DNA of 64,000 nt from assembly GCA_963774265.1 (NCBI GenBank), contig CAVZDU010000005.1:489671-553670 (forward strand), read 5' to 3'. The position numbers and the translations under genes were made by a program. The notes under the pieces are model-generated. The model ran no database searches. It was not told the DNA's origin and saw nothing but the letters and a program-made list of their open reading frames with translations. Of the stretch, positions 39,044 through 57,774 are shown piece after piece; position 1 is the first letter of the stretch, and the number at the start of each line of letters is the position of its first letter. Origin of the DNA: an uncultured Chloroflexia bacterium. Its GTDB lineage: Bacteria; Chloroflexota; Anaerolineae; CG2-30-64-16.

Positions 39044-39077
39044 ACCGGCGACCCGTAAGGGTTGCCGGTTTTGCTTT
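39044..39077 (+). terminator. Intrinsic terminator after the tRNA remnant
   Basis: ACCGGCGACCC-GTAA-GGGTTGCCGGT-TTTGCTTT. Confidence 0.7.
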
Positions 39078-39410: not shown

Positions 39411-39421
39411 AGGTCAGGCAT

Positions 39422-40174: not shown

Positions 40175-41439
40175 CCGCCGGCTGGGAACCGCCCCCACGG
40201 GATCGACGTATCGCCTACCTCGTCGCACCCGAGTTTGGCGCCCAGGTATTGCAGCGATGGCGACGCAAGCGTCGGCAGCATGGCCGTGTCGACCCCGCCT
40301 TATGTGAGGGCCCGTGGGCGCTGTTGGATGACCAGGGCCGCGTGCTGACTCTCAACGCGCTGGCGGCGCGTAGCGGCATCATGCCGGGACAGACTGAGTC
40401 GCAGGCGATGGCGCGGTGTCCCGTTGCCACACTGCGCCCTGCCAGCCGTTATCCCCTTTTTGAGGTGCAAACCGAGTTCATCGCGGCCGTGGCGCATTAT
40501 GCCGGCCGCTGGCAGCCTGCGGGCCTGGGCTGCGCCTACCTGGACACTGAGGGCCTGGGAATTGGGAGCGATCCCCTGATGACCTGGTGCCAGGCGCTTG
40601 CGGTTGATATCCGCAGCCTCGGCCTGACGCCCAGTCTTGGCTTGACCAGCTCTAAATTCGGCGCCTTTGCCGCGGGCCAGGCCGCAGGGCGCAACAGCAT
40701 GCTGGTGATGAGTTCGACCGTAGAACGATCATTCGTGGCCGCCCAGCCGGTCACGTTGTTGCCGCTGGATGCCGCGACGTTGCTGCACCTCCGGCATCTC
40801 GGCATCCGATCGCTGGGTGAGTACGCGCGCCTGCCCGCCGCGGGAGTGCTCGCCCGTTTCGGTGAGGCGGGCCGGACCGCACAACGTTGGGCGCAAGGCC
40901 ACGATGAGCGCCCTGTCACCCTACCTGATGAGCTGCCGCAAGTTACCTCCCGCATCGAGTTCGAGACGCCGGTGACCGATCGAGACATCCTGTTGGGCGC
41001 CTTGTTGCAGCGCACATCAACGCTGCTGGCCCCGTTGCACGCAAACCTGCAGGCCGTCGGGCGGCTGACCCTGGTCGTCCTGGCCGCGGATCGGCGTGTC
41101 CTGCCCGCAAATCACACTTTCTCACTGCCCACCGCCGCCATGGCAACCATCCGGCTGGCGTTGGCTGCGGCCTGGACCTATCCGCGGCGATCCTTGGATC
41201 GCAGAATAGTGAAGGTGCGAGCGAGGTCACGCTCATCTGGGCGACATCAGTGATGCGGCGATACCCGTATCGCTGCAGTTGTCTTTATTCGACGGCGGGC
41301 CAACCTCGCGCTGCGGCGTTGACGGCCCTCCTCGATCGGTTCGCCACGCGTCGGGCCACACGCATTCCAGATGGCTGCCCTGACGGAACCCGGCCATCCA
41401 CTTCCCGAACGGCGGGCCAACTGGAAGGAGTTCAGTTAG
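40171..41439 (+). CDS. imuB: ImuB, inactive Y-family polymerase (frameshifts in 3' part)
   Basis: GIMPG...AMARCP, AYLD, LGIRSLGEYARLP; shifted frames give QLSLF clamp motif and HPLPERR ending at TAG 41439. Confidence 0.8.
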
Positions 41440-41444
41440 AGGTC

Positions 41445-41731
41445 ATGACGCGACTTCGGCCGCAGGAGCGCCGGTGCAGGTGGTGGCGCGGAACGACGGT
41501 GCACCGGCGCGCTTCCAGCTGTGGGGTGACTGGCATGAAGGTCGCGTTCATTGCCAATCGCTGGCGCGTGCACACGGCCTGGTGGCTGTCGGAAGCGGTC
41601 ACGCAACGCGACGATCCAAGGACTGCGGCATCGCGCGAGTATTTCAAGCTCGCTTCCACCGATGGGCTGCTTTGCACCTCTATCGCGATCTGCAGGACAG
41701 CGCCTGGTATTGTGCGCGGGTGTACGACTGA
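41445..41731 (+). CDS. Small mutasome-associated protein (DUF6504-like; frameshifted)
   Basis: PARF...IANRWRVHTAWW...REYFKL...LYRDL...WYCARVYD. Confidence 0.65.
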
Positions 41732-41745
41732 AATAGCGCCTGGTC

Positions 41746-44700
41746 ATGTACTGTGAACTGCATTGCCACTCGTATTACTCTCTTCTCGATGCCGCATCCG
41801 CACCCGAGGCGTTGGTCGAGGCCGCGGCCGCGGAAGGCGTGGCTGCGCTGGCCCTCACCGACCATGACGGTCTCTATGGGGCCGTGGCGTTCTGGCGCGC
41901 GGCGCAGGCGCGGGGCGTGCGGCCCATCATCGGTGCGGAGCTCACCCTGGCCCACGGCTCGCACCTGACTTTACTGGCAGAAACGCAGGCGGGTTACGCC
42001 AACCTTAGCCGGCTCATCAGCATCGGGCAACTGGCGGGGAGTAAGGGCAACCCCCGCCTGGCGATCGAGGACGTGGCCCGGCACGCGGGCGGGCTGCTGT
42101 GCCTGACGGGATGCCCGCAAGGCGCAGTGGCCGCGGCCGTGCTGGCCGATGACACACCGCGGGCGCGACGGGCCGCGGGCAGGCTCGCTGATATCTTCGG
42201 CCGCGATCGAACGTGGGTCGAGGTGCAGCGCCACTGGCTGCCGGACGATGCACGGTTGAATGCGGGGCTGGTTGCGGTCGCGCAGGGGACCGGCCTGCCC
42301 GTGGTGGCGACGAACGACGTTCATTACGCGGCGCCGGAGGGCCATCGACTGCGCGAAGTGCTGACTGCCACCCGTCTCAACTGTTCCCTGGGCGAGCTGG
42401 TTGCGCGGCTGCCGCCGGGCCTTGTGGCCGCGCAAGCCTCAACCGAGTTTTATCTCAAGAGCGAGGCCGAGATGGCCGCCCTCTTTGCCGACCTGCCCCA
42501 CGCCATCACGGAGACGCAGGCGATTGCCGAGCGCTGCAGCGTCGACCTTGATTTTTCACAGCGGCGCACACCCGCCTTTCCCCCTCAAACCGCGGACTTC
42601 ACCGCCGGGCTCCCCGCCGGCGAAACGCCGTTCAGCTATTTGTACCGGCTCAGCCATGCCGGGTTGACCGAGCGATCCGAAGGATCGCAGTATCGCCCGG
42701 TCACCCCGGCCGCCCTGCGCCAACTCAGCCACGAATTGACGGTGATCGAGAACGCGGGACTGGCTGATTACTTTCTGATCGTATGGGATATCGTCCGGTT
42801 TGCGCGCTCGCAAAACATCCGGTGCCAGGGCCGCGGCAGCGCCGCCAATTCGGTGGTGGCATACGTCCTGGGCATCACGCCGGTCGATCCCCTGCAGTAC
42901 GATCTCCTCTTTGAACGATTCCTGAGCGACCGGCACGACACCACTCCTGACATCGATCTGGATTTCGCGTCCGACCGGCGGGACGAGGTGGTGGCGTATA
43001 TTTACGAGCGCTACGGCGTCGAGCATGCGGCCATGGTGTGCAATGTCAACACCTATCAATGGCGCAGCGCGGTGCGCGATGCGGCGCGCGCATTGGGGTA
43101 CCAGCCGGAGGATGTAGACCGGATTGCTGAGTGGGCGCGCGAGAACCGGCCGAAGGACGCACAGGTGAAGGAAGAAGGAAAAAGGAAAAAGGAAAATCTT
43201 CCCTCTTCCCTCTTCCCTCTTCCTTTTCGTTCGGCGCTAGTGCTGGAGTTGGCGGCGCAATTGATCGACACGCCGCGGCACCTCTCCGTGCACGTCGGCG
43301 GGATGTTGATCACTGCGCAGCCGCTGGTGGAGATCGTGCCGCTGGAACGGGCCACCAAAGAAGGGATCGTCGTCGCGCAATGGAACAAAGACAGCGTCGA
43401 GGACGCGGGACTCATCAAAATCGATCTGCTTTGCCTGCGGACATTGGATGCCATCAGCGAAGCTTGCGCGTTGATTGCGCAGCGCAGCGGGTCTGCGCCG
43501 GATTTGGCCGCACTGCCGTTGGACGATCCCGCGGTCTATCGCCTCCTGGCCGCGGGCGACACCATCGGCGCGTTTCAGGTCGAAAGTCGCGCCCAGGCCC
43601 AGATGCTGCCGCGACTGAAACCAGCACGCTTCGAAGACCTGATCATCCAGGTGAGCATTGTCCGGCCCGGGCCCATTCAAGGCGGCATGGTGCATCCATA
43701 CCTGCGCCGGCGGCAGGGGCTGGAGCCTGTGACTTACCTCCATCCCAGCCTGGAGCCGGTTTTGCGCGAGACCCTGGGCGTGATCCTTTTTCAGGAACAG
43801 GTCTTGCGCGTGGCAATGGTGCTGGCCAGGTTCACGCCCGGCGAGGCGGATCTGCTGCGCCGCGCGATGAGCCGGAGCCGGTCCGCGCAAGCGATGGCCG
43901 AATTGCAGGAACGGTTTTTGGCCGGCGCGGTGGCGAACGGTGTTGCACCGGCGGTCGCCCAGGAAGTCTTCCGCCAGCTTCAGGGTTTCGCCACCTACGG
44001 GTTCTGCAAGTCGCACGCAGCGAGTTTTGCGCTCATCGCCTATCAGACGCTGTGGCTCAAGGCACATCACCCGCTCGAATACACCTGTGCGCTGCTGAAT
44101 CACCAGCCCATGGGCTTTTACGCGCCTGAAGTGGTTATGGGCGACGCGCAGCGGCACGGCATCAAGATCATGCGGCCGAACGTCAATCTGAGCCTGGATG
44201 CCTGCACCATCGAGGCAGGTTCGCTGCGATTGGGATTGCGCTATCTGCATGGGCTTGGGGAAGCGGGGTGCGGTCGCGTGCTGGCCGCGCGATCCCTGGA
44301 TCGCCGCGGCGACCACGGGTCGTGCGACCACGAGTCGTGCGACCACGAGTCGTGCGACCAACCGTTTACCTCGTTGACCGACTTCTGCCGGCGCACGCGG
44401 CTGCCGCGCACACTGATCGGCGACCTGATCCGGGCCGGTGCATTGGACGGGCTCAGCACCCAAAAGGGAGACGGCACGCCCACCAAACGGAACGTGAATG
44501 CCTGCGAAGTGGGCAGTGAAGCAGTGGGCAGCGGCCAGGAGCCGCAGCCGGCCCGCCGGCAGATGCTGTGGCTGCTGGGCGATGTGCAGTACGACGAAGA
44601 GCAACTTGTCGAAGTTCCCCCCCTCGAAGCGGACCTGCCACCCCTGAGCGAAGCGGAGGCGCTGGCCTGGGACTACGAACTCATGGGCGTGTCGCCGCGA

Positions 44701-45069
44701 TCCGGCACAGGATCGCTGGATCACCCCATGCGGCTCATGCGGGCGACTCTTGAGTCGCTGCGGGGCCGGGGCGTGCTCACTGCCGCGGAACTGGCGCGGC
44801 GGCCGGCCGGGCAATTGGTCGTCGTCGCAGGGCTGGTCATCGTGCGGCAGGCGCCGCCGACCGCGAAGGGACACTTGTTCATCACGCTGGAAGACGAGTC
44901 CGGCCTGGCGAACCTCATCATCCGGCCCGACCTGTATGAGCGAAAGCGCGCCGTCCTGCACCGAGCGTCCGCGCTCATTGTTCGGGGCGTGACGCAGCGG
45001 GATGGGGGGGCGAGCAGCCTGCTGGTGCGGGACGTTGCGGCGCTGGAGAGCGGGAGCGGCTTCGTATGA
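41746..45069 (+). CDS. dnaE2: Error-prone DNA polymerase DnaE2 (ImuC)
   Basis: ELHCHSYYSLLD PHP, GRGSAANS, PDIDLDF, PRHLSVHVGG, FQVESRAQ, YGFCKSHAASFA, QPMGFY, RQAPPTAKG. Confidence 0.96.
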   Translation: MYCELHCHSYYSLLDAASAPEALVEAAAAEGVAALALTDHDGLYGAVAFWRAAQARGVRPIIGAELTLAHGSHLTLLAETQAGYANLSRLISIGQLAGSKGNPRLAIEDVARHAGGLLCLTGCPQGAVAAAVLADDTPRARRAAGRLADIFGRDRTWVEVQRHWLPDDARLNAGLVAVAQGTGLPVVATNDVHYAAPEGHRLREVLTATRLNCSLGELVARLPPGLVAAQASTEFYLKSEAEMAALFADLPHAITETQAIAERCSVDLDFSQRRTPAFPPQTADFTAGLPAGETPFSYLYRLSHAGLTERSEGSQYRPVTPAALRQLSHELTVIENAGLADYFLIVWDIVRFARSQNIRCQGRGSAANSVVAYVLGITPVDPLQYDLLFERFLSDRHDTTPDIDLDFASDRRDEVVAYIYERYGVEHAAMVCNVNTYQWRSAVRDAARALGYQPEDVDRIAEWARENRPKDAQVKEEGKRKKENLPSSLFPLPFRSALVLELAAQLIDTPRHLSVHVGGMLITAQPLVEIVPLERATKEGIVVAQWNKDSVEDAGLIKIDLLCLRTLDAISEACALIAQRSGSAPDLAALPLDDPAVYRLLAAGDTIGAFQVESRAQAQMLPRLKPARFEDLIIQVSIVRPGPIQGGMVHPYLRRRQGLEPVTYLHPSLEPVLRETLGVILFQEQVLRVAMVLARFTPGEADLLRRAMSRSRSAQAMAELQERFLAGAVANGVAPAVAQEVFRQLQGFATYGFCKSHAASFALIAYQTLWLKAHHPLEYTCALLNHQPMGFYAPEVVMGDAQRHGIKIMRPNVNLSLDACTIEAGSLRLGLRYLHGLGEAGCGRVLAARSLDRRGDHGSCDHESCDHESCDQPFTSLTDFCRRTRLPRTLIGDLIRAGALDGLSTQKGDGTPTKRNVNACEVGSEAVGSGQEPQPARRQMLWLLGDVQYDEEQLVEVPPLEADLPPLSEAEALAWDYELMGVSPRSGTGSLDHPMRLMRATLESLRGRGVLTAAELARRPAGQLVVVAGLVIVRQAPPTAKGHLFITLEDESGLANLIIRPDLYERKRAVLHRASALIVRGVTQRDGGASSLLVRDVAALESGSGFV
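43167..43228. repeat. Inverted heptamer array (GGAA(A/G)AA)n / (TCTTCCC)n inside dnaE2
   Basis: Direct reading; encodes KEEGKRKKENLPSSLFPLPF. Confidence 0.85.
44311..44360. repeat. 15-bp tandem repeat GACCACGAGTCGTGC x3 inside dnaE2
   Basis: Encodes DHGSC-DHESC-DHESC. Confidence 0.9.
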
Positions 45070-45280
45070 CACGTCGACCGGGCGCCTCGCCCACAGGGCG
45101 TGCAGCTTACGTCTGGTCAATGTCACCCGCGAAGACGCGCTGGAACGGCCCGATGAACCTCTTTGCCGTCGACCAATCCAGGATTGCAAAGATCACCTGG
45201 CTACCTGAAGGTTTCCATTGCTTGCACTCTCCGTGTATCCTGATTATCCCTATGGCACCGTGCCGGTCTGTGCGCGAACT

Positions 45281-46963
45281 CTACCTGACCACGATGAAGA
45301 AGCAGTTGAAATAGGCCGTGTCAGGCTTGAGCTCCCAGGTCCCCAGGAAGGGGGTCACGCTGCGGTCGTCCACGCGCGCCACCACCTGGCTGCTGCCTGG
45401 CTTCAGGCGGATCGTCCTCTTCGGGCGGCCCTCCTCCTGACAAGAGCTTGGGCCGACGCTATAGTGCTTGCAGCTCGAGCAAGCTTCGATCGTGATCGAT
45501 GTGGAGCTGGGCGAGCCGACAAGCACCGTGAGCACGTGCGGTGTGTCGTTGACGATCGTCACCTCGGTCTCCCCGCCCGCCGACACCCCGCCCATGTCAC
45601 CCGGTTGTGGCAGCGCACCGTGCGTCCCTTTGGCAACCGCGGCGATTTGTTCGTCGATGGTGAGCGTCGCCTTGGGGACGACCGGTTTGCTCGTGGCGGC
45701 TGGGGTGGGAGGCTTGGGGATATTCTGCGCCTCTGCAATGCCGCTCACCGGCACATCCAACTTGACCAGCGAAGCCGCAACCCAGCCCTTCTTCCCGTCG
45801 GCCAGGGTCACCGCCAGCCAGTCGCCGGTCTTGGTCCGGCCGGTGACCCCCACCTGATCTCCCTTACGCAGTACGCCGATCTTCGGGTAGTTGGTGCCTG
45901 GCCCAGTCCGCACGTTGAGCACATCAGTGGTGACGACAGCACGCGGCGAACTGGCGGTGACGGTGGTGGCGCGCGTGGCCGAAGGGCCGGGCGTTGAGGT
46001 AGCCGTGTCTGTCGCCTGCGAAAGCACCGTCTGTGCCCGAGAACCTGCAGTCCAGTCCGGCTGGACGCCGGTGATCCCGCTCAGCAGCTGCTGCGCCCCG
46101 GAGCCGTCGGCATTCATCACCCAGAGACCCTGGCTGGAACCCTCTGAGTTCTCGGTGAAGGCATCGTAGACGATCATCTTCCCGTCGGGTGACCACGCGG
46201 GATTCGCTTCGCTACCGGGTTGAGCGAGCGCGTGCAGGCCGCTCCCGTCCGCGTCGAAGATGTACAGATCCTCCGGCAGTTCTTCGCCCCCTTGTGTACC
46301 GCAGCACCAGTCGCCAGCCAGGATCTTCTTGCCGTCGGGCGACCAGGCGAACGCCTGGAACCGCCACGGCGGCTCAAGGAGCGTCCGCGACTCGCCGCTC
46401 TCCACATCGAAGAGACAGACCTCGGAGGACGAGAAGGCCGTGCAGTCGAAGACGATCTGGGTCCCGTCCGGCGACCAGGCATAGGCACCAGAAAAACTGT
46501 TCTTCCAATTAGGGCTGGAGAGTGCCAGCACGCGCACACCCGAGCCGTCGGGACGCATCACGGCAAGCTTCCCCGCGGCGAAGAAGGAGATGTTCCCGTC
46601 GGGTAGCCACGCCGGTCGCGAGGGCCACAAGGAACCATCGCTAGTCTCGGGGGTCAGGAAGGCACCGCCACTGCCGTCGCTCTTGACGACGGCGAGCTGC
46701 CATTTGTCGGTGATGTAGGCGATCTGCGTGCCATCGGGCGACCAGACCGGATAGGATTGATTGACGAAGCCAGCCCCCGCCAGCCGGCGCGTCCCCTGGG
46801 CATCGAGCAGGTAGATGTCGGCGTACTTGCCCCCCTTGTGCGGCGAAGCGAAGACGATGGAGCCGTCGATCGCAACGGCCGGCTTCCCAGCCCCCGAGTC
46901 GCTGCAGCCCGAAATTGCGGCAACGACGAGGATCACCAACGGAATCATCTTGATTGGATTCAT
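45281..46963 (-). CDS. Lipoprotein: TolB-like PD40 beta-propeller + SH3b + C-terminal domain
   Basis: ISGC lipobox, repeated WSPDG, LNVRTGPGTNY..GWVAA. Confidence 0.88.
   Translation of the reverse strand: MNPIKMIPLVILVVAAISGCSDSGAGKPAVAIDGSIVFASPHKGGKYADIYLLDAQGTRRLAGAGFVNQSYPVWSPDGTQIAYITDKWQLAVVKSDGSGGAFLTPETSDGSLWPSRPAWLPDGNISFFAAGKLAVMRPDGSGVRVLALSSPNWKNSFSGAYAWSPDGTQIVFDCTAFSSSEVCLFDVESGESRTLLEPPWRFQAFAWSPDGKKILAGDWCCGTQGGEELPEDLYIFDADGSGLHALAQPGSEANPAWSPDGKMIVYDAFTENSEGSSQGLWVMNADGSGAQQLLSGITGVQPDWTAGSRAQTVLSQATDTATSTPGPSATRATTVTASSPRAVVTTDVLNVRTGPGTNYPKIGVLRKGDQVGVTGRTKTGDWLAVTLADGKKGWVAASLVKLDVPVSGIAEAQNIPKPPTPAATSKPVVPKATLTIDEQIAAVAKGTHGALPQPGDMGGVSAGGETEVTIVNDTPHVLTVLVGSPSSTSITIEACSSCKHYSVGPSSCQEEGRPKRTIRLKPGSSQVVARVDDRSVTPFLGTWELKPDTAYFNCFFIVVR
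45746..46044. repeat. ~300-bp linker+SH3b module, copy 1
   Basis: High nucleotide similarity to 52126-52424. Confidence 0.9.
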
Positions 46964-48180
46964 TTCAAGCTCCCTTCTTTGCCTTGCAACTCGTCCGGAT
47001 TGTCGCACATTCTCGGTCATACCCAGTGGCGCCGCGAGCGCTACAGTCACGGCTTGACCAGCTGGCCGCCAAGCGCCTCGCGACCAGAGTGGCCAGGCTG
47101 AGGAGCCGTGGCCGCGCGATCCTCATGACAGCGTGCCGCGCAACGATGCGTCTCACTATCTACGTAGAAGGCTCACGGCGACGATGGCGATCACGCACAC
47201 CAACGCGAACCCCAGGTAGGTAAGTATCGGTCTCTTCGAGCGATCCCACGGCGAATACACGCCGAGGAACGAGCCAAGCAAGCCCACGTAGGTCGCGGCC
47301 CACAGGAGGATCAGATCGTACTCAAGCGATGCGCCCGAAGCGGCGCCCCCTTCGAAGTAGAACATCGCGTTCAGCGCGGGGGGCTCACGGCAACGGCGAG
47401 TGCCAGGAGATGCAACACCCACACCAGACGAGCACGCAGGGGCGGCCGGTCGGGGGCCAGTGACTTCCCCCGTCGCAGCAGGCTGGATAGGGCGAGGAAG
47501 ACGATCGTCAAACCCGCGACGCACAGCCCGCTGATGAGCGTCGCCAACCCTGTGAAGAACGGAAGGGAACCACCTCCAGGGTGAGTGAAGAAGCCCGGGA
47601 TGATAAGGACGTTGTTGCCGGAATCGCGCTGGAGCTCGTAGAGGTCCCACCCGCTCCACGTGCGGCCGGCTTCGGACCCCAGCCAGGGCATGAACGAGGC
47701 CGCGATCATCAGTCCGCTGGCCAGGAGAGCGATCGCGCCCGCGATCAGCACGCACCTCCTCCAGTTCGGCTTTGTCGCCGCTGGGATGGTGACCGCCGTG
47801 GCCTCGTAGGTGCCGCCTGTGCGAGACCTTGACGGCCAGGGTGTCGGGGAAGATCGGGGACTCCTGAATCTGCTCCTGAGCGCCCGCCGGTGCCGCGCTG
47901 CTCCTCTCGTCGGTCCCGTTGATCAACAGCTTGCCTTTGGGTCTCGCAACTAAATAGACCAGAATCCCAAAGACGCCGAACAGAAGTACGATCACGAACC
48001 AGCACCCTGCCCTGGCTCCCCGCTTTTTGGCCTCCTTGATGACCCAGACGAGGAGAGCGATGTTAATCGCCAGTGCAACGATTCCAACCGCAATGCCACA
48101 GAGGGCCACAGCGACATCGGTGTCTTCGCTCTGCGCAAAAACAGTCGTGGGCAGCAGAAGGGATAGCATAGCCGCCATCC

Positions 48181-49995
48181 CTAGCGTAAGTTTTGTGCAA
48201 TCAGAGCCGGAGTCATGGAAATCGGCTCGAAATGACAACTTTGGAAGAGCGGCAGGCTGAGCTGGACGACCCAGCTGCCGACCTGAATGATGCGACCGGC
48301 ATAGAGACTATCATCCGAGAACCTTAACAAGCAACCGTTGGGTAGCCACTGGACACTGGCAGGCGTGTGAGCAGCAACCTGGACCAGCGTTTTGATGCTC
48401 GCTGTGACCGGTACGAGCCACTGGTTAGGCACTTGTCCGCAGTCATGGCACAACCAATGGGCGGCCCAGCGCAGGAAGTTGGCCGCAAAGGCGGCGAACT
48501 GTTCTTGCAGCCAGAGCGCCGGTAGGGAACGCACCTTGAGATGGTGCATCTGGAACACGCCCTTACCTTCCTTGATGCCCGCCTCGACCGTCTGGCGACC
48601 ATTGTAGAAGGCAAACCAGCCACCCAGATCTTTGGTGACAGCGTCCGACCCGAAGTGTAGGAGCGCGCCGTACCGCTCGGTCTTGCCTGTATAGAAGTGC
48701 TCAAGGGCAACATCGACCGGGTAGGGGTTGCCCTTGAAGAGCACGCCAGACCAGGCGATCATCTCGGCATTGGCACCTACGCGCACCCAGGGCGTCGTAT
48801 CCTCGATCCTATGCAGCAAACTGGCCTTGACCTTCTGACTGTAGGGTCGGGTGTAGACCTCGTAGCCCAGTTCGATCAAGCGGGCGACGTTTTCCCAGGT
48901 GCCGAACCCGGCATCCAATCGAAAGACGGCATGGATGGGGGCCGGATTGGCAGCATTCTCCCGGTTGAAGTCGTCAAGCCGCTGGCCTAAGGTCCGCTCC
49001 ATAGCCCGTAAGGCCGCGAACCGCACCTGCTCACGCGCGACGCTACGCTGAGCCTGCAGAAAGCGCTGCTGCTGGCGCTGCAAGCGGCGTTCGCAGGCGG
49101 CGAGATGCGCCCGAGCCTGTGCCAGACGGCAATGCGGTCGCCCCTTGCGCTGCGCGGCCTGCTCGCTGGCGGCCATCAGGCCAGTCAAGGCGGCATTCGC
49201 CTGACCTACCTGCTCGCTGCGAGCCTGCATCAACGCCTGTGCTGCGCTGAACGCCTGGCAGCGTTGCTGAAGGCGCTGCTCAACCAGCGCCCGCTCTTGG
49301 CTCACGGCGTGCAGGCGCTGGCCCAGTAATTCGGTACGCCGTCGGGGACGCACCCCGGTCTGGCCTTCTGCAGCCAGCACCATCTCTTCGGCTACTTGAC
49401 AGGAAAGCACGTTGCCTGGATGCGGCTTGACTGAGAGCCACAGTCGACCATAGGTCGGGCTCTTTAGGCTGACGACAGCCGCTTGGTAGCCGAGGCGTAC
49501 CGCATCGTCCATGTGGCCAAAGGCAGCCCCGGGGTAGCTCGTGCTGGTATTGGAGACGGGTCGGCCGGTAAGATCGCCGTCGTAAATGAGCCGGCCCTCC
49601 TGGAGCAGCGCCTGCGCCACCTGATCGTCAATGAAGGGATGGCTGATTTGGCTTAAGGCAGCGGCGATCCGTTCCGCTTCCGGTTGAGTGAGCGCCTGTA
49701 AGGTCCGCCCAACGCCACTGTAGTCGGCCCAGCCGTCCTGCTGCCAGGCAGTCGCCACAACCAGGTCTTGGTCCAACGGCCGCGCATCGCGACTGATGTC
49801 CTCGAGATGCGGCAGGCCAGCCAGAATCGCCACCAGGAACTCGACCACCTTGGTTTGTGGCTGATGCGTGCGGGTCTTCTGATGCAGAGATGCCGCCATC
49901 AGGACCTGAATGAGCCCGAGATGCTGGGCGTACTGGCCCAGAAGTACCAAGAGCGCATGCTCCGTATGGCTCGGTTGAGTGGCGACTTCACGCAT
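48181..49995 (-). CDS. DDE transposase, IS1380-like, with coiled-coil insertion
   Basis: YDGDLTG (D1), RLDAGFG (D2), YNGRQTVEAGIKEGK (E); AGGAGG RBS before ATG 49995. Confidence 0.85.
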   Translation of the reverse strand: MREVATQPSHTEHALLVLLGQYAQHLGLIQVLMAASLHQKTRTHQPQTKVVEFLVAILAGLPHLEDISRDARPLDQDLVVATAWQQDGWADYSGVGRTLQALTQPEAERIAAALSQISHPFIDDQVAQALLQEGRLIYDGDLTGRPVSNTSTSYPGAAFGHMDDAVRLGYQAAVVSLKSPTYGRLWLSVKPHPGNVLSCQVAEEMVLAAEGQTGVRPRRRTELLGQRLHAVSQERALVEQRLQQRCQAFSAAQALMQARSEQVGQANAALTGLMAASEQAAQRKGRPHCRLAQARAHLAACERRLQRQQQRFLQAQRSVAREQVRFAALRAMERTLGQRLDDFNRENAANPAPIHAVFRLDAGFGTWENVARLIELGYEVYTRPYSQKVKASLLHRIEDTTPWVRVGANAEMIAWSGVLFKGNPYPVDVALEHFYTGKTERYGALLHFGSDAVTKDLGGWFAFYNGRQTVEAGIKEGKGVFQMHHLKVRSLPALWLQEQFAAFAANFLRWAAHWLCHDCGQVPNQWLVPVTASIKTLVQVAAHTPASVQWLPNGCLLRFSDDSLYAGRIIQVGSWVVQLSLPLFQSCHFEPISMTPALIAQNLR

Positions 49996-50120
49996 GGCGG
50001 ATTCCTCCTTAACTGAGCGGAGATTCGCCCCGAGCATAACGGTTGCCTGTCGATTATAAAAGTTCGAATTTCGGGCCGTTTTCTATGATTCGACCGCTGA
50101 TTGCACAAAACCTGCGCTAG
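48181..50120 (-). mobile_element. IS1380-like insertion sequence with ~60-bp imperfect TIRs, CTAG at both ends
   Basis: Left CTAGCGTAAGTTTTGTGCAATCAG...CGAAATGACAACT versus right (reverse complement) CTAGCGCAGGTTTTGTGCAATCAG...CGAAATTCGAACT. Confidence 0.9.
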
Positions 50121-50391
50121 TACACTGGCAACTGTATTAACTGGGCGTTTCATCGGTCTCCCCTTTGCTGCTGATACTGTTTGCGAAATATGTGTACTGT
50201 CAGGCATCGTGTTGCACAGTAACACGGTCAAGATGGGCTGCCGGTCCCCTATCCTCCAGGAACAGGTTGCCGGTGTCGATGGCTGTCCGTCGTCTGGGCC
50301 GAGCACTCATCCCAGTGGCAAGAGCTACTTGCCCAGCTCTTGTAAGGTACGATCCATCAGAGTACACGTAATTCTCCATACAGCGATTCTG

Positions 50392-51936
50392 CTACTTGTT
50401 GTTGCGTCCCTCCGATATGATGCTCGTACTGCCGTCTTCTACCACGATGTTATGGTCCAAGTCTCGGGACGAGAGCGACGAGGATCCAGCAGGCGTGGTA
50501 ACCTGCCAAGTCTCGGAATCAGTGCCAATGGCATAGTCATTTCGCGCCGAAACCCACCACTGGTAGGTGGTATTGGCACTCAACCAAACTGTGGACCCTG
50601 TGTCATTCACCCAGTCATAATCGTACCCCTGTTGGCCAACCCCCCGCCAATGCGTCAGATACTCTACTGCGCCAGACACAGACGACCATTGCAGAGTTAC
50701 TGTCGTGGTTGACGCTGTACTTCCGTTGGCAGGGGCAACCAGGGTAGGGGCGGGCAGGATAGTTCCTCCTGAGCCCGTAGTGAAAGACCACACTTCCGAA
50801 TATGGTCCTTGGATGTCACCGCACACTAGCCAGGCTCGCCAGTAGTAAGTCGTGGCGGGGTCAAGGTTTTGCGAGAAGCGGTGTTCTCTCACTCCGGGGT
50901 GAGGCGTTGAGGACCACAAGTCACCAGCAACGTGCGTGAAACCAGAGTCCTCGGCTACCTGCAAACGCAATGTGGTTGCGCTCGGGTTGTTGCCATTATC
51001 CCACCTATATAGGGGTGCAATAGTGTTCAGACTGCTTCCATTGGTAGGGCTAAGAAGTGTGGGAATTGTTGAGCAGCCCCCGGGCGGCTGCACGATCACC
51101 GATGCCACGTTACTCCACCCGCTCGCACCCCAGGTGTTGCTCGCCTGCACTCGATAGTAGTAGGTGCCAGCCGCCCTGCCGGTGGCGGTCCAGGAAGTGC
51201 TGGAGCCCGAATAGCGCGCCTCCGGGCTCGGGAATGCAGCATTGTCGTCCTCTTGAAGGAGATAGCCGGTGGCGTTGGCTGACGCGCTCCACGATACGGT
51301 GTAGTTGCCATCCCCGTCCGAGTTCTCGATGGCGTTCAGCACCGGCGCTGCCGGAAAGGGTGGGAAGCCTTTCAGCGCTAGCGGCAGGTATACCGTGCTA
51401 AGAGGCGGATCAACTCGTTCAACTATTCCTCGCTGCCCACCGTCAGGGGGCACGTCATTCCAATAGTCTCCAAAGCTACCGCTACCTACGTCTGTCTGCC
51501 AATTCATTACAGCGGCATCCTCGCAACCCGGGTATTCCGTACAGAAGCAGCAATTGTTTGGCTCCTCTTGCTCCCAGTTCGTGTAAGTGACCGGTGCCCC
51601 ACTTGACCAGACCCAATTGCCCTCGTCTGCGATGTCATTAAAGCCTATATAGAAATGCTCGAGCCTGCCGAAGGTATCCTTGACCCAAAGCTCCTCTTCT
51701 GAGTTGTCAAGGGTCACAAGATGACCACCCCAAGCTACCGCCTGAGTCTCTGCATCAAACCAACTCATTGGATCTGTAGGCCGGTAATGGTGACCATTGG
51801 CAGGATTGAAAAACCAAGACCCTCCTTGAGCCAATGCGACTCCTGACTTAGCCGAACCCAACGCCAACAGAGCGACAACGATCATTGTCATAGTCAATGA
51901 GAGCGCAGTGAGTTTTGAGTTGAATTTTATGTTCAT
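50392..51936 (-). CDS. Secreted C-type lectin + fibronectin-III-like repeat protein
   Basis: Signal peptide; NGHHY..MSWFDAE..GGHLVT..YTNW..EPNN..WND; YYYRVQA, TYYWR, TYQWWV. Confidence 0.85.
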   Translation of the reverse strand: MNIKFNSKLTALSLTMTMIVVALLALGSAKSGVALAQGGSWFFNPANGHHYRPTDPMSWFDAETQAVAWGGHLVTLDNSEEELWVKDTFGRLEHFYIGFNDIADEGNWVWSSGAPVTYTNWEQEEPNNCCFCTEYPGCEDAAVMNWQTDVGSGSFGDYWNDVPPDGGQRGIVERVDPPLSTVYLPLALKGFPPFPAAPVLNAIENSDGDGNYTVSWSASANATGYLLQEDDNAAFPSPEARYSGSSTSWTATGRAAGTYYYRVQASNTWGASGWSNVASVIVQPPGGCSTIPTLLSPTNGSSLNTIAPLYRWDNGNNPSATTLRLQVAEDSGFTHVAGDLWSSTPHPGVREHRFSQNLDPATTYYWRAWLVCGDIQGPYSEVWSFTTGSGGTILPAPTLVAPANGSTASTTTVTLQWSSVSGAVEYLTHWRGVGQQGYDYDWVNDTGSTVWLSANTTYQWWVSARNDYAIGTDSETWQVTTPAGSSSLSSRDLDHNIVVEDGSTSIISEGRNNK

Positions 51937-51963
51937 TGTACCCTCCCAATTGTGCAATGTAAG

Positions 51964-53565
51964 TCAAACAGCGAACTTGCTCATGTTTGTCTTCGCACAA
52001 CTTGTCAGTAGACGGACAGATGTCGAACTCATTCCGCAGCAAACGGCGGTCGCCGCTGAATTTGACCCAACGACCGTCCGGCACGATGACTGGGCGAGCA
52101 CCCAGTCGACCACCGGCAGTGACGCCACCGGCACGTCCAGCTTGACCAGCGAAGCCGCCACCCAGCCCTTCTTCCCGTCGGCCAGGGTCACCGCCAGCCA
52201 GTCGCCGGCCTCGGTCCGGCCGGTGACCACCATCTGAACTCCCTTACGCACTACGCGAGTCTTCGGGTAGTTCGTGCCAGGCCCAGTCCGCACATTGAGC
52301 GTATCGGTGGTGACGACAGCACGCGGCAAACTGGCGGTGAGGGTGGCGGCGGGCGTGGCCGAAGGGCGGAGCGTTGGGGTGGCAGTGTCTGTCGACAGCA
52401 AAAGCTCCGTCGCTGCCCGAGAGCCTTCGGCTACCGGCATAGCCGTTGCCTGCTGGCTGACAGCCTCCGAGGTGGTCGCCGTGACGAGCCCTCGATTCCG
52501 AGAGAACGCGGGCAGCTTCAGACCCATAGCCGGCAGCAGCAAGACTGCACCCGCTGCCACGATCACCAGCACCAGCATTAGGGCCGCAAGGCGGGCGCCC
52601 TGGCCCACTTCACGTCGCGGAGCTGGGCGTGCCGGGATCGCCGGCAGGTGCATGGGCATCGACCAACGCTCGATCTCAGCGCCGAGCGATGCCGGCAGGG
52701 TCGTGCTGAACCAGGTCTCGGTCTTCGACTCGGTGCTGGTCTTGCCCTTCTTGTCTTTCTTGTCCTGCTTGAGCTCGTCCCAGTGCACCGTGGTGACAAG
52801 GTTGTAGTCACTCCGGCCGCACTCGCATCGCGACAGGTCGAGCTGGATCCGGGCGGGATCGGTGACGCGGATCGGCACGGCCTGGAGTGGCAGGGCCGAT
52901 TCGCTGGCCAGCGCTTCGACGAGCGGCGGCGCGCCCTCGATCGGGATTGTCGTCGTCTTTGGTGTGCCGTACCAAGTCTCGCACGATTCGCAGAACGGGC
53001 TCTTGTAGGACCCGGCGGCGGTCATCGTGGCACCCAACAGGACAAGCAGCCCGTCGATCACCATTAGCCCATAGTTGAACGGCGGATCGACCGTCTCCAG
53101 AATCCGCGAGCTCTCGTGGAGCGGCGCGTTCATCAGCACAGCGGTTCCCATGAACGCCGTGTAGGTCAGACCCCCGGTCAGCAACCCAAGCAGGCCCGCG
53201 ACCCAGGGCTTCCGACACTTGCCCACCCTCGCCCCCGATGCCACTGCGCTTCCGGCGACCGCGCCGATTAGGAGCGGATAGCCGATGCCGACCATCAACG
53301 CGGGGAAAATGAGCACGAACACGGCCACTCCGTTGCCGACCAGCCCCACATCTGACAGCCAGGCGGCGACCGCCGCGCTGAGATGGGTGGTCTGGATGCC
53401 GATCCAACGCGTGACCGCGCCCCCGAAGTAGCCACCCCCGCCAGCGATCAGCGCGGCCGGGACGCCGACGCCAACCATCAACGCCAGGGCTCTAAACGGG
53501 AGTCGTCCGCTGAATTGGTAGGGATGGCGCCACGAGGCAGCCTTGACATCCGGAACGTACGGCAT
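51964..53565 (-). CDS. Multi-TM membrane protein with CxxC/CxC region and C-terminal SH3b (start uncertain, possibly 53727)
   Basis: Hydrophobic helices, PFCESCETWY, RCECG, TM, LNVRTGPGTNY..GWVAA. Confidence 0.7.
   Translation of the reverse strand: MPYVPDVKAASWRHPYQFSGRLPFRALALMVGVGVPAALIAGGGGYFGGAVTRWIGIQTTHLSAAVAAWLSDVGLVGNGVAVFVLIFPALMVGIGYPLLIGAVAGSAVASGARVGKCRKPWVAGLLGLLTGGLTYTAFMGTAVLMNAPLHESSRILETVDPPFNYGLMVIDGLLVLLGATMTAAGSYKSPFCESCETWYGTPKTTTIPIEGAPPLVEALASESALPLQAVPIRVTDPARIQLDLSRCECGRSDYNLVTTVHWDELKQDKKDKKGKTSTESKTETWFSTTLPASLGAEIERWSMPMHLPAIPARPAPRREVGQGARLAALMLVLVIVAAGAVLLLPAMGLKLPAFSRNRGLVTATTSEAVSQQATAMPVAEGSRAATELLLSTDTATPTLRPSATPAATLTASLPRAVVTTDTLNVRTGPGTNYPKTRVVRKGVQMVVTGRTEAGDWLAVTLADGKKGWVAASLVKLDVPVASLPVVDWVLAQSSCRTVVGSNSAATAVCCGMSSTSVRLLTSCAKTNMSKFAV
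52126..52424. repeat. ~300-bp linker+SH3b module, copy 2
   Basis: See 45746-46044. Confidence 0.9.
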
Positions 53566-53947
53566 TGCCACTTCAGCCACCTCTTCTCTACCAGCGGGTG
53601 AATCGTCCAGCCACCCGGAGAACGATAATCCGCCCAGGCTGCGAGCATCGCTGGGCGCGCTGACATCGACGACCTCCCATTCGTCCAGCGGGTTGCCGTC
53701 GTGGCGCGTGCAGTCCGGCGCCTCCATCGTGGAGTAAGTTCCGGGGTCTGGGCCGGTCAGTTTGCATGAGTTGGGCAGCCTAACGTCTAAGCTCCGACTC
53801 GGCAATACATGAATGTTTTCCCGTTGACCGGTGGTTGGGGGGACAAAAAAGGCTTCCAACCCCCCAAGACGAAGGTGTCCTGGAATGGAAGGGAAGCCAT
53901 GAGGTGACGATGCGACTTTGTGAGGCGGCCCATCCTTGAACAGAGGC

Positions 53948-53994
53948 ACGCGTCGTTGTTGCTTCACAATAGCACGACGCGTATGGGGTGTCAA
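53948..53994 (-). promoter_or_regulatory. Promoter with inverted-repeat operator for the surface-protein cluster
   Basis: Minus strand TTGACA-17 nt-TATTGT; ACGCGTCGT/ACGACGCGT arms flank the -10. Confidence 0.6.
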
Positions 53995-54028
53995 GCTTTT
54001 CCCAAATCAACAAATCGGAATTCCACTC

Positions 54029-54080
54029 TTGACAAAGTCAGAATAATGGTATAGAATACTCTGTAGTACAGAGTACTCTA
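54029..54080 (+). promoter_or_regulatory. Promoter and palindromic operator of the ABC-2 operon
   Basis: TTGACA-17 nt-TAGAAT, then palindrome TACTCTGTA-G-TACAGAGTA. Confidence 0.7.
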
Positions 54081-54093
54081 AAGGAGTGATCCA

Positions 54094-54663
54094 ATGAACA
54101 TCTCCCCTGACGAAGCCGAAGAAGCGCTGGCGGCCATCCAAAGGATGACGCAGAAGACCCGCCACTCGATTGCCAGCAGCGGCGCCTACATTTTCCTGAT
54201 CGTCACGGGCATCATCTGGCTGGTCGGATTTCTGTCCACCCAGTTCCTGACCGGTGAAATCGTCGCCTATATCTGGATCGGGATGAGCCTCCTTGGCAGC
54301 GCTCTGTCCATCCTGCTCGGCACCCGGATGGGCACGCGCGTCCGCGGGCCATCAGCCGCCGCCTCCGCAAAGCGAGCCGGCATCTTCTGGCTGCTGCTGG
54401 TCTTCTACGGCATTGCCGCCATCGCCATCGCCCGGCCCACGGACGGGAAGCAGGTGACCATGTTCATCATCCTGTTCATCATGATCGGCCAGCTGGCCAT
54501 GGGCCTGCTGCTCTCTTTCTCCTCCATCTGGTGGGCGCTGCCGATCACCGCCCTGGCGCTGGTCGGCTACTTCCTGCTGCCCGGTATCTTCTATCTGTGG
54601 ATGGCCATCCTGGTCGGCGGCGGGATGATCGCCCTCGGCCTGTACATCCGCTCGAGGTGGTAA
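54094..54663 (+). CDS. Membrane protein (about 6 TM)
   Basis: AAGGAG RBS; hydrophobic; typical partner of the downstream wHTH regulator. Confidence 0.8.
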   Translation: MNISPDEAEEALAAIQRMTQKTRHSIASSGAYIFLIVTGIIWLVGFLSTQFLTGEIVAYIWIGMSLLGSALSILLGTRMGTRVRGPSAAASAKRAGIFWLLLVFYGIAAIAIARPTDGKQVTMFIILFIMIGQLAMGLLLSFSSIWWALPITALALVGYFLLPGIFYLWMAILVGGGMIALGLYIRSRW

Positions 54664-54666
54664 GCC

Positions 54667-54960
54667 ATGGCCGAGTTGAATGAAACCATCCACCAGCCGG
54701 TGCGCCTGCGCATCATGGCCGCCCTGGTGACCCTGGAGGCGGGCAACGAGGTGGACTTCACCTACCTGCGCGACCTGCTCGAGGTCACCGACGGCAACCT
54801 GGGCGCCCACCTGCGCAAACTGGAAGAGGCCGGCTACATCGCCGTCAACAAGACCTTCGTCGAACGCAAGCCGCGCACCTTCGTCGCCGCCACCGCCGCG
54901 GGACGCAAGGTCTTCCAGGAGCACGTGGCAGCACTGGAATCGATCTTGAAAAGGAAGTGA
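54667..54960 (+). CDS. Winged-helix (HTH_34, ArsR/MarR-like) regulator
   Basis: IHQPVRLRIMAAL, FTYLRDLL.VTDGNLGAHLRKLEEAGY. Confidence 0.9.
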   Translation: MAELNETIHQPVRLRIMAALVTLEAGNEVDFTYLRDLLEVTDGNLGAHLRKLEEAGYIAVNKTFVERKPRTFVAATAAGRKVFQEHVAALESILKRK

Positions 54961-54968
54961 GGCAAGAT

Positions 54969-55893
54969 ATGGACACCATCGTGCAAGTTGAAGGACTGCG
55001 CAAGATCTACGGGGCAACCGTCGCCGTGGACGAGATCTCGTTCGAGGTCCGCGAAGGCGAGATCTTTGGGATGGTCGGCCCGAACGGGGCCGGCAAGACC
55101 ACCACCATCGAATGCCTGGAAGGCCTGCGCAAACCGGACCGGGGAATCGGTCCGCGTCCTGGGCGTGGACCCGCAGCGCGACGGCCAGACCCTGCGCGAA
55201 CGCACCGGGATGCAGCTGCAGCAGTCCAACCTGCCGGACCGGATGCGCGTTTGGGAGGCGCTGGACCTGTATGCCTCGTTCTACCCCAAAGCGGCCGACT
55301 GGAAGGAACTGCTCGCCCAGCTGGGGCTGGAGGAGAAACGCAATGCCCCCTTCTCGAAACTCTCCGGCGGGCAGAAGCAGCGCCTGTTCATCGCCCTGGC
55401 GCTCCTCCCGGACCCGCAGCTGGTCTTCCTGGACGAGCTGACCACCGGCCTCGACCCCCAGGCGCGGCACGCCATCTGGGACCTGGTGCGCGACGTGCGC
55501 GCCAGGGGCAAGACGGTCCTGCTGACCACCCATTTCATGGAAGAGGCCGAGCGCCTGTGCGACCGGGTAGCCATCCTCGACCACGGCCGGATCGTGGCGC
55601 TGGACACCCCGGCGGCCCTGATCCGCGGCCTGGGGGCGGAGGAACGGGTCGTCTTCAGCCTGGACGGGGCTCTGCCGGCAGGCTTCGAAAAAGCCCTTTC
55701 CGGCGCGGTCCGGCTCGAGGTCCAGGGAGAGCGGGTGATCGTCCACGGGAAGAACGGCCGCAAGGTCCCGCTGGTGAGCGAGGTGGTCAGCCTGCTGACC
55801 GGACAGGGGATCCCGTTCCGCGACCTGCGCACCGAGCAGCCGACCCTGGAAGATGTCTTCCTGAGCCTGACCGGCCGCGAGATGAGAGAGTGA
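54969..55893 (+). CDS. ABC-2 exporter ATP-binding protein (frameshift near 55145)
   Basis: GPNGAGKTT, LSGGQKQR, LDELTTGLDP, TTHFMEEAE. Confidence 0.92.
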
Positions 55894-55901
55894 GGTGTGA
55901 G

Positions 55902-56647
55902 ATGAAAAGCCTGTTGAAAATGACCTGGATGGAAGCCAAGCTGTTCCTGCGCGAGCCGGTGGGCGCCTTTTTCACGCTGGTCTTCCCCTTGATGATGCTG
56001 TTCCTGTTCGGCAGCCATCTATGGCAACCAACCCGCACCGCAGTCCGGCGGCCAGGGGGCGATCGACACTGTTGATCCCGGCCTTGACCGCCATGATCAT
56101 CGGCATCACCGGACTGATGTCCATCACCATCACCATGGCCACCTACCGGGAGAACGGCATCCTGCGCCGCCTGCGGACCACGCCGGTCAGCCCGCTGGTC
56201 GTCATGGCCGCGCAGGTGATCGTGGTCTTCGCCATGACCTGCCTGGGCATGCTCCTGCTCGTCGCCGCCGGGAAGCTGGTCTACCACGTGCGCTTCGAGG
56301 GCAACGCCTTCAGCATGCTGGCCGGCTTCATCCTGAGCAGCCTGAGTTTCTTCGGGATCGGATTCATCCTGGCGGGCATCATGCCCACGGCGCGCACCGC
56401 CCAGATCGTCGCGATGGTGCTGCTGTACCCGATGTTGATCCTCTCCGGGGCCGCCTGGCCGCGCGAACTGATGCCCGCAACCGTCCAGAAGGTCTCGGCC
56501 TTCCTGCCGCTGACCTACGTGGTCAACCTGCTGCGCGGCCTGTGGATCGGCGAGCCCTGGGGAAATCACCTGCTGGATGTCGGCGTGCTGGCCGGGATGC
56601 TCCTGCTGGGGATTATCGTCTCGGCGAAGACATTCCGCTGGGAGTAA
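55902..56647 (+). CDS. ABC-2 exporter permease (frameshifted near 56020-56070)
   Basis: KLFLREP..FFTLVFP; RENGILRRLRTTP; LPLTY; FRWE. Confidence 0.88.
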
Positions 56648-56694
56648 TGGCCGTCATTCACCAAGTCGCCGTTCTGTAACCTTCAACCGGCTTG

Positions 56695-57558
56695 CTACAC
56701 CCCGCTGAACGCCGAGAACCCGCCGTCCACCGGCACGGTGATGCCCGTGACGAACGCCGAGGCCTCGGAGAGCAGCCAAAGGATGGTGCCCAGCAGGTCT
56801 GCTGGCTCGCCAAAGCGGCCCATGGGGGTGTGGTCGATAATTGCCTGGCCGCGCGGGGTCAATGCGCCGGTCTCGCGGTCGGTCAGCAGGTAGCGGTTTT
56901 GCTCGCCCAGGAAGAAGCCGGGCGCGATCGCGTTGACTCGAATTTGCCGTGTATACTGCTGCGCTATGTGCACGGCCAGCCACTGGGTGAAGTTGCTGAT
57001 GCCGGCCTTGCCGGCCGAGTAGGCGGGGGTGCGCGTCAGCGGCCGGAACGCGTTCATCGACGAGAAGTTGAGGATCACACCCTCGCCGCGCTGCGCCATT
57101 TGCTGGCCGAACACCTGGCAGGGCAGAATCGTGCCCATCAGGTTCAGGTCGAGCACGAAGCGCAGCGCGTCCTCGGGCAGGTCGAAGAAGCTCAAATCTG
57201 GGCCAGTGGTGGCGGTCGGCTTGTTGCCCCCGGCCGCGTTGACCAGGCCGTAGATGCAGCCGAAGCGCTCGTTGATGATCGTTGCTGCTTTGAGCAGGCT
57301 CTCTCGGTCCAGCACGTCGCCGTGCACCGCCTCAGCCCGGCAGGCGTGCGGTGATCCTTCGGATCGCGATCCGAAGGATCGCCCCATCCGCTCCAGGATG
57401 CCCTGAACCGGGTCGAGATTGCGGTCGAGGAGGACGACGTTGGCACCGACGCCTGCCAGCGCGCACGCTACCTCGCTGCCCAGTACGCCGGTGCCGCCGG
57501 TTACCACGAAGGTTCGGCCGGTGAAGTCGTAGAGTTGAGTGAGTTGTTGGAGGTTCAC
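56695..57558 (-). CDS. SDR oxidoreductase, D-mannonate oxidoreductase (UxuB)-like
   Basis: TGGTGVLG, NAAGGN, SSMNAFRPLTR.PAYSAGK, TPMGRFG, VDGGFSAFSGV; AAGGAG before GTG 57558. Confidence 0.88.
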   Translation of the reverse strand: MNLQQLTQLYDFTGRTFVVTGGTGVLGSEVACALAGVGANVVLLDRNLDPVQGILERMGRSFGSRSEGSPHACRAEAVHGDVLDRESLLKAATIINERFGCIYGLVNAAGGNKPTATTGPDLSFFDLPEDALRFVLDLNLMGTILPCQVFGQQMAQRGEGVILNFSSMNAFRPLTRTPAYSAGKAGISNFTQWLAVHIAQQYTRQIRVNAIAPGFFLGEQNRYLLTDRETGALTPRGQAIIDHTPMGRFGEPADLLGTILWLLSEASAFVTGITVPVDGGFSAFSGV

Positions 57559-57774
57559 AGGCGCTCCTTTGGATTGAAGAGATGATATCACAGCCTGATA
57601 TGACCGGAAAACGGCTGCACCGGCCCGTCGTCGGCGCCAAGGACCGGCAGATGTATCCAACTGAGATCGCCCGTGAGGTCGGTGGCCCAGATGATAGCGC
57701 CGACAGCGGACTCTCGCAGATCCAGCTCCCGCAGCGGCGAAACGCAAAGCGCCCGACTGAAACAAATCAGCGAT

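Follow-up and report, generated by a model that had tools for sequence, protein, structure and literature searches.

A family of very short hairpins was found inside protein genes of an uncultured soil Chloroflexia bacterium, in a stretch of 64,000 nucleotides that is called the window in this text (G000:C5:489671-553670). The perfect hairpins share the arms GCGATCC and GGATCGC around a loop of a few nucleotides. Alignment with orthologs shows that they are true lineage-specific insertions, which add peptides of 5-10 residues (RSEGS, RSLDR, RSGTGS and RSFGS-RSEGS) to their host proteins. We classed the unit as a miniature, non-coding insertion resembling a repetitive extragenic palindrome (REP), belonging to a Chloroflexota lineage (Anaerolineae/Caldilineales-like), and we infer that it is mobile. 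The genome, G000, comprises 5.51 Mb in 10 contigs, with 62% G+C and 84% marker completeness. C1, C3, C5, C7 and C9 denote its contigs, and G004, G013 and similar labels denote related genomes.

The original prediction, made from the letters of the window alone, had listed five perfect hairpins with constant arms and varying loops (TT, GAA, CT and GGCACA). The sequence confirmed all five at their positions. The hairpins and their host genes are as follows.

40171-41440, plus strand: imuB-like gene, with frame changes in its last third
41187-41202: GCGATCC-TT-GGATCGC, in imuB
41746-45069, plus strand: dnaE2, error-prone DNA polymerase gene, an intact frame of 1107 codons with three hairpin inserts
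42672-42688: GCGATCC-GAA-GGATCGC, in dnaE2
44289-44304: GCGATCC-CT-GGATCGC, in dnaE2
44697-44716: GCGATCC-GGCACA-GGATCGC, in dnaE2
56695-57558, minus strand: short-chain dehydrogenase/reductase (SDR) gene, carrying a 30-bp dimer
57366-57382: GCGATCC-GAA-GGATCGC, in the SDR gene, part of the dimer

Judged by its alignment, the SDR gene is the cleanest case of insertion. Its best solved relative was 4wuv_A, a 2-hydroxycyclohexanecarboxyl-CoA dehydrogenase (E 3.7e-61). All 11 orthologs read ATG GGG CCG CAC at the site, and the window carries 30 bp between GGG and CCG. The junctions were clean, with unchanged flanks and no target duplication, and the alignment to PDB 4wuv_A showed a 10-residue gap at the insert. 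The inserted segment is a head-to-head dimer.

57352-57381: 30-bp head-to-head dimer with loops TTC and GAA, encoding RSFGS-RSEGS

The dimer contains a 28-bp perfect palindrome, and its single-stranded DNA fold was calculated at -14.6 kcal/mol. The RSFGS unit (loop TTC), which had been proposed as a second unit beside the perfect one, proved real and has one imperfect outer base.

The dnaE2 gene carries three inserts, which were delimited by codon alignment. In the database, its relatives bear the name "error-prone DNA polymerase" and contain the Pfam domains PHP and DNA_pol3_alpha.

42673-42687: site 1, net in-frame insert of 15 bp encoding RSEGS
44290-44304: site 2, net insert of 15 bp (CGATCCCTGGATCGC) encoding RSLDR
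44310-44354, plus strand: three tandem 15-bp units CGACCACG(G/A)GTCGTG (CGACCACGRGTCGTG), each a small hairpin
44697-44716: site 3, hairpin holding a net insert of 18 bp encoding RSGTGS

Two sets of sequences were compared at these sites, namely the 8 alignable orthologs of related genomes and 47 database homologs, which were the closest dnaE2 relatives and were all 75% identical or less. At site 1, RSEGS faced a 5-residue gap in 8/8 orthologs and was absent from 47/47 homologs. At site 3, RSGTGS faced a 6-residue gap in every ortholog and was likewise missing from all 47 homologs; its junction is ambiguous in that the ancestral GGC codon may be the GGC in the present loop. Gaps of this kind had been foreseen for the dnaE2 and SDR inserts, and both genes bore this out. 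A survey of 80 dnaE2 loci from species-representative genomes (454 kb) yielded no CGATCC hairpin.

The second site is more elaborate. The insert splits an older 12-bp palindrome exactly in the middle (GCCGCG|CGCGGC), and after in-silico removal the flanks were palindromic over 6 bp. It is directly followed by the three tandem units, which encode DHGSC-DHESC-DHESC. These units are the sole 3 copies in the genome and were absent from all aligned orthologs and homologs. Together, RSLDR and DHGSC-DHESC-DHESC form a lineage-specific block of roughly 20 residues, which is a gap in 8/8 orthologs and occurs in none of the 47 homologs.

The two closest dnaE2 homologs, P0004 and P0005 (75% identity), are rich in further inserts specific to their lineages. 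Where the window has RSLDR, P0005 has RSPAGS; it also contains RDVACYVST, the peptide that the GTAGAGACGTAGCATGCTACGTCTCTAC palindrome family encodes in phase 0. In P0004, RSNGS occurs at a different site.

The hairpins had been described as inserted in frame. This holds for dnaE2 and the SDR gene and fails for imuB, where the 14-bp core of the hairpin (41188-41201, in the 3' third of the gene) coincides with a frame change. In-silico removal of the 14 bp joined the frames, and the resulting SEGASEVTL aligned to GEGAADMTL of 6 orthologs. At least three further frame changes were seen within about 250 bp after the hairpin, when the three-frame translation of 41131-41440 was compared with the orthologs by eye. 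The frame changes may reflect real decay or assembly indels. The dnaE2 gene downstream of the frame-shifted imuB is intact.

Insertions of 15 bp were also found outside the window. A CoxM/CoxS-type gene (C1:435281) carries a 15-bp insert, CGATCCAGGGATCGC, that was absent from 5/5 orthologs, and an oxidoreductase gene on C9 (C9:24075) carries a 15-bp insert, CGATCCTTGGATCGC, that was absent from its one ortholog (84% identical). The copy in a 6-phosphogluconate dehydrogenase gene coincides with a 4-residue gap in the comparison with the structure PDB 1pgn_A. A helicase gene carries several inserts.

C1:1285514-1289033: PHP-domain/UvrD-like helicase fusion gene of 1173 codons, with three kinds of insert

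The first kind consists of three tandem CGATCC hairpins (ERSEGSSDPEGSSDPFGS), with tandem triplets at C1:1286978. The second is a GTAG-type palindrome, GGGCGACC, which encodes GVGGDLRVAP, and the third is a REP-like palindrome capped by the hairpin (GARHFSDPRIASAGH). All of them are in frame, in linkers that vary in the orthologs too, and the orthologs carry other REP-derived peptides (PVGATGRSPL) in the corresponding linkers. Overall, 8 genic hairpin copies fall in three DNA-repair genes, namely dnaE2, imuB and the UvrD-like helicase gene. This concentration probably reflects insertion-tolerant, weakly constrained repair proteins and not a function of the inserts.

The copy number of the hairpin exceeded expectation in both the window and the whole genome. 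In the window, CGATCC-N0-8-GGATCG matched 6 times against 0.12 expected, and 6 matches were reached in none of 100 shuffles. One of the six, CGATCC-A-GGATCG at 5004-5016, has a 1-nt loop and lies in a long open reading frame (ORF) in another phase; this match is probably due to chance and was left outside the family count. Genome-wide, with loops of 1-6 nt, the 6-bp arms gave 37 copies against 11.1 expected, which places CGATCC/GGATCG sixth among 2648 arms by enrichment, and the 7-bp arms GCGATCC/GGATCGC gave 16 against 1.24. Perfect copies with loops of 2-4 nt numbered 30 against 5.5 expected, in line with the enrichment that had been anticipated. About half of the convincing copies are genic. 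No Rfam family matched within 39000-58500.

Matches with mismatches stayed at the chance level genome-wide, with 139 one-mismatch matches against 135 expected and 1665 two-mismatch matches against 1659. Therefore, the family has no visible decayed tail, and the proposed degenerate copy at 41612-41625 (CGATCC-AA-GGACTG, with two arm mismatches) carries no weight and was dropped.

The copies are strongly clustered. Five of the 16 seven-bp-arm copies lie inside one 16-kb span of the window, and the probability that at least 4 further copies fall so close to a given copy was about 2e-6. Further clusters were located at C1:435281-435522 and C1:1.276-1.290 Mb.

The hairpin also occurs as a part of longer palindromes. 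In G000, 10 of the 37 copies with 6-bp arms cap a longer palindrome of the form AGGTGCCCGGCACTT-[hairpin]-AAGTGCCGGGCACCT, and at least one such capped, REP-like palindrome lies inside a gene. The plain AGGTGCCCGGCACTT...AAGTGCCGGGCACCT palindrome with a 3-nt loop has about 21 copies in the genome. In the congener G004, 6 of 9 hairpin copies showed the capped arrangement and 2 more capped other long palindromes. In G013, the hairpin takes the form GGGGCGATCC-GGN-GGATCGCCCC and belongs to a composite repeat of ~150 bp, whose other modules are GGCACTTCGTGCC and a longer GCCGACACCC...GGTCGGC stem; of 16 loci examined (L065-L080), at least 15 contained this repeat. A perfect palindrome of 51 bp at C3:336573-336623 is built from three units, GCGATCC-TGA-GGATGGC, GCGATCC-TCA-GGATCGC and GCCATCC-TCA-GGATCGC.

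Among 37 genomes of the family, GCGATCC-N2-6-GGATCGC was most frequent in G013 (24 copies), followed by G000 (16), G004 (9) and G038 (6), and the rest had 0-4. The hairpin was present in 21 other genomes of the family. Three hundred other genomes of the phylum, a tally that takes in G220, G274 and G319 (unpublished, and used for no other result), had 0-7 copies each.

Several features of the junctions and loops bear on how the unit enters DNA. No target duplication was found at the clean junctions (SDR, C1:435281 and C9:24075). At the 7 sites checked against orthologs, the insert is preceded by G, and in 6 of them it is followed by C (P = 0.003); these two flanking bases extend the arms to 7 bp. 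Net insert lengths were 14, 15 or 18 bp (30 bp as the dimer), whole units measured 14-20 bp, and loops measured 2, 3, 4 or 6 nt. The palindromic context of the target was strong (6 bp) at one of the seven genic sites and 2 bp at another, and the rest had G|C alone. The probability of at least one palindrome-centre site among seven was about 0.003. Insertion into palindrome centres was considered as a general target rule and rejected on the count of one strongly palindromic genic site in seven; it remains a hint.

Of the 14 three-nucleotide loops, 10 were GNA (GAA or GCA) on one strand; for other hairpins that have 6-bp arms, the count was 105 of 861. DNA mini-hairpins with a GNA loop and a closing C:G pair are reported to be very stable (PMC3201870, PMC13037366). 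The excess of such loops, together with their stability, points to a single-stranded DNA form.

Three stand-alone Y1_Tnp genes (Y1/HUH, RAYT-like) were detected in the genome. One of them lies inside the largest hairpin cluster, the 15 kb at C1:1.276-1.290 Mb. All three have flanking hairpins of other sequences.

C7:428267-428773: Y1_Tnp gene, flanked by GCCCGCT-NN-AGCGGGC hairpins
C1:1281417-1281974: Y1_Tnp gene, flanked by GCCCGCT-NN-AGCGGGC hairpins
C5:45817-46368: Y1_Tnp gene, flanked by other hairpins

The GCCCGCT-NN-AGCGGGC family, with 8 listed copies, is probably the REP family of the first two genes. Within the genus, Y1_Tnp was found only in G000, G004 and G005, which have 16, 9 and 4 hairpins, versus 0, 1, 1, 0 and 0 in the other members. 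TnpB was not found in the genome, and an IS605-type element was set aside on this ground. End-joining capture of free hairpins was also set aside, as no Ku gene was found in the 84%-complete genome.

We give an even chance to the reading that the unit is a REP-like insertion sequence in miniature, spreading as a mini-hairpin of single-stranded DNA, most likely through an HUH enzyme acting in trans, and that selection keeps the in-frame copies in tolerant loops. In such a process, the unit would move as a single-stranded DNA mini-hairpin, mostly with C-GNA-G triloops. A hairpin-recognising enzyme would act on it in trans, and the likeliest candidates would be the stand-alone Y1/HUH (RAYT-like) transposases of the genome. 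Of the genic copies, selection would then retain only those with a net length divisible by three and a place in tolerant surface loops or linkers, where they would read as hydrophilic RS-x-GS peptides.

A number of observations weigh against this reading. The three Y1_Tnp genes are flanked by GCCCGCT..AGCGGGC and other hairpins and not by CGATCC hairpins, and the association of Y1_Tnp with the hairpin within the genus is confounded by kinship. Across the family, G013 has 24 copies and no Y1_Tnp match (93% completeness), and G014, G015 and G035 have 3-4 Y1_Tnp genes and zero copies. The flanks of all 46 matches contained no GTAG or CGTC tag, the feature that defines REPs mobilised by a RAYT, and only G...C was conserved. 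The varying loop and net lengths and the G/C bases, which resemble 1-nt microhomology, fit copying or joining during replication or repair better than a precise transposase cut. The bias toward the RS-x-GS reading phase is weak and not significant, with 10 of 19 genic copies starting on a codon (P = 0.065). A tail of decayed copies is absent, as noted above for the one-mismatch matches. Finally, the search for an empty allele within the species was negative; among 5.8 billion proteins, the closest dnaE2 shared 75% identity.

Templated copying without a dedicated enzyme is the main alternative, though we hold it only tentatively. Hairpins stall polymerases, and during replication or repair a nascent strand might use microhomology of 1-2 nt to jump to a hairpin close by, copy this stable structure and return, with a short templated insertion as the result. 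This would agree with the lack of target duplication and of a RAYT tag, with the variable net lengths of 14, 15 and 18 bp, and with the G/C junction bases, which are possible microhomology at 6 of 7 sites. The strong local clustering would follow if donor and acceptor lay on one replication fork, and palindromic context is seen in the insert at the centre of the 12-bp palindrome and in the 10 copies at the tips of long palindromes. However, the loops GAA, CT, GGCACA and TT differ within 3.5 kb, which leaves most copies without an obvious nearby donor, and only one of the seven genic target sites is strongly palindromic. Across genera, different repeats include these same arms as a conserved module, which suggests specific recognition of the hairpin, and lineage-specific bursts are more typical of mobile elements. 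Templated copying explains the junctions and clustering better than spread through an enzyme in trans does, and it accounts less well for the varied loops and for arms that are conserved between genera.

A bolder proposal, which we consider unlikely, is that the 15-nt C-GNA-G mini-hairpin is itself the complete mobile unit and the smallest known. It would have no sequence tag, and its structure alone would then be the signal; it would enter, with no duplication, at G|C steps, at palindrome tips and in the loops of other REPs, and it would be copied or excised as a single strand. Recurrent entry into dnaE2, imuB and the UvrD-like helicase gene would reflect where single-stranded DNA meets the enzyme, and not tolerance alone.

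The remaining explanations are very improbable. If no insertion element existed, the matches would have arisen by chance and base composition or by independent selection of RS-x-GS linker peptides. CGA TCC ... GGA TCG in phase 0 does encode flexible Arg-Ser and Gly-Ser linkers, about 5-11 chance matches are expected genome-wide, and some of the listed matches are clearly chance, such as the one in a P-loop (GDPGIGKST). Against this stand the sixfold to thirteenfold excess of perfect copies, the 10 copies in REP-like palindromes (at least one of them genic), and the copy that breaks a reading frame. The arms are never spelled with synonymous codons, and the hairpin-sized gaps in orthologs contradict both chance and peptide selection.

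An artefact of long-read metagenome assembly or sequencing is hardly credible either. It could draw on the combination of 10 contigs with 84% marker completeness, and on the several imuB frame changes within 250 bp, as seen in indel-prone assemblies. Public runs gave no coverage of the stretch: those sharing words with 41100-45100 were three soil-metagenome contig sets with shares of 0.05-0.07, which over 40000-58000 yielded short, diverged pieces of other organisms that leave the hairpin sites uncovered and so are uninformative. However, the dnaE2 and SDR inserts keep long frames open, and the hairpin recurs in 21 further genomes of the family, many of which are fragmented into several hundred contigs. 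A perfect palindrome of 15 bp is not known as a common type of consensus error.

The original prediction had also noted a resemblance to highly iterated palindrome 1 (HIP1), and a palindrome raised by GATC/CGATCG methylation with biased repair, as proposed for the cyanobacterial GCGATCGC, would suit arms that contain GCGATC and GATCGC; this parallel lapsed, and the explanation is very improbable, as GCGATCGC was not enriched (454 against 498 expected under a Markov model), the 84%-complete genome yielded no Dam-type methylase (PF02086) and one weak C5-methylase fragment (PF00145), and HIP1 arises by substitution, whereas the hairpin copies are insertions of 15-30 bp.

The closest published counterparts are intragenic REPs. 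Passages of Di Nocera, De Gregorio & Rocco 2013 (PMC3733652) describe GTAG/CGTC-tagged REPs inside ORFs of several species, many of them in replication and repair genes with UvrD/REP helicases and DnaE2 named, and report GTAG repeats in Chloroflexi. The hairpin resembles those REPs, as presented there, in being a short GC-rich stem-loop, in occurring both dispersed and as in-frame ORF inserts, in forming head-to-head dimers and in its concentration in repair genes. Like them, it forms a family of many dispersed copies, in which clusters occur besides the dimers. In contrast, the hairpin of the window has no GTAG/CGTC tag, and other families of the same genome have GTAG...CTAC. Its units of 14-20 bp and net inserts of 14, 15 or 18 bp fall below the REP sizes given in parts of two papers, 20-40 bp (PMC3733652) and 21-65 bp (PMC3184786). 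Its loops are mostly 2-3 nt, it is nested at the tips of other palindromes, and about half of its convincing copies are genic.

In REPIN/RAYT systems, as outlined by Bertels & Rainey 2011 (PMC3116915), a single-copy Y1/HUH transposase is considered to mobilise, in trans, hairpin repeats that are often inverted doublets. The three stand-alone Y1_Tnp genes are a point of likeness. The differences are that these genes are flanked by other hairpin families, that no tetranucleotide tag is present, and that copies do not track Y1_Tnp across the family. IS200/IS605-type transposition places its insert 3' of a fixed target of four or five nucleotides and causes no duplication. At the hairpin sites no duplication was found, the one shared target feature is the G before and usually the C after (6 of 7 sites), a longer motif is not evident, and TnpB is absent. 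Miniature inverted-repeat transposable elements have terminal inverted repeats, duplicate their target site and measure roughly 50-500 bp; a 15-bp hairpin without duplication does not match them. A HIP1-type palindrome does not match either, given the count of GCGATCGC and the lack of a cognate methylase among the genes found. The GCGNAGC / d(GNA) mini-hairpins share the loop type (C-GAA-G and C-GCA-G); in the parts of PMC13037366 and PMC3201870 that concern them, they are a matter of oligonucleotide physico-chemistry and not a genomic insertion element.

Outside this literature, the nearest counterparts in size are the cyanobacterial small dispersed repeats of Elhai et al. 2008. These are reportedly hairpins of about 21-27 nt that were judged mobile by presence and absence, are nested in repeats and are occasionally genic. 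They belong to a different phylum and have a different sequence, and the present units are smaller and lack a HIP1 background. Rickettsia palindromic elements (RPE) are palindromic repeats that lie in frame in protein genes as tolerated peptide segments. RPE-1 is roughly ten times longer than the hairpin unit and has no sequence relationship to it. RPE are also mentioned in passages of PMC3733652. The literature search returned PMC3733652 and general reviews only, and neither this hairpin nor any element of 15 bp in genes of Chloroflexi was described there. The hairpin shares the behaviour of intragenic palindromic repeats, and its tag-free and ultra-small form is new.

If the unit is mobile, the size limit of a bacterial insertion element would be lowered to about 15 bp, and a bare DNA mini-hairpin without a tag or target duplication could spread and reshape the loops of proteins. 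The clean junctions of the 15-bp and 30-bp inserts are rare, precise material on how REP-like palindromes enter genes. The hairpin also adds a Chloroflexota example to the published and unexplained clustering of palindromic inserts in DnaE2/UvrD-type repair genes. As lineage-specific indels, the hairpin inserts can lead alignments and gene calls astray when genomes assembled from metagenomes are analysed.

Other palindromes of G000 were recorded beside the hairpin. The 51-bp palindrome at C3:336573-336623 adjoins two GGCGGAC-type palindromes. A family of 30-bp perfect palindromes, TGTAGAGACGTTGCA|TGCAACGTCTCTACA, has 15 copies, and a sister family with ACGTAGC arms has 9; both have GTAG...CTAC ends. 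Sites of these two families outside the window include C1:4276, 982665, 982932 and 1019387, C3:103840 and 192574, and C9:32445. Eight of the 15 TGTAGAGACGTTGCA|TGCAACGTCTCTACA copies lie in long ORFs in a single phase, reading VETLHATSL. In a RACo-like gene, one such copy corresponds to an 8-residue gap in two orthologs, and another replaces a variable segment.

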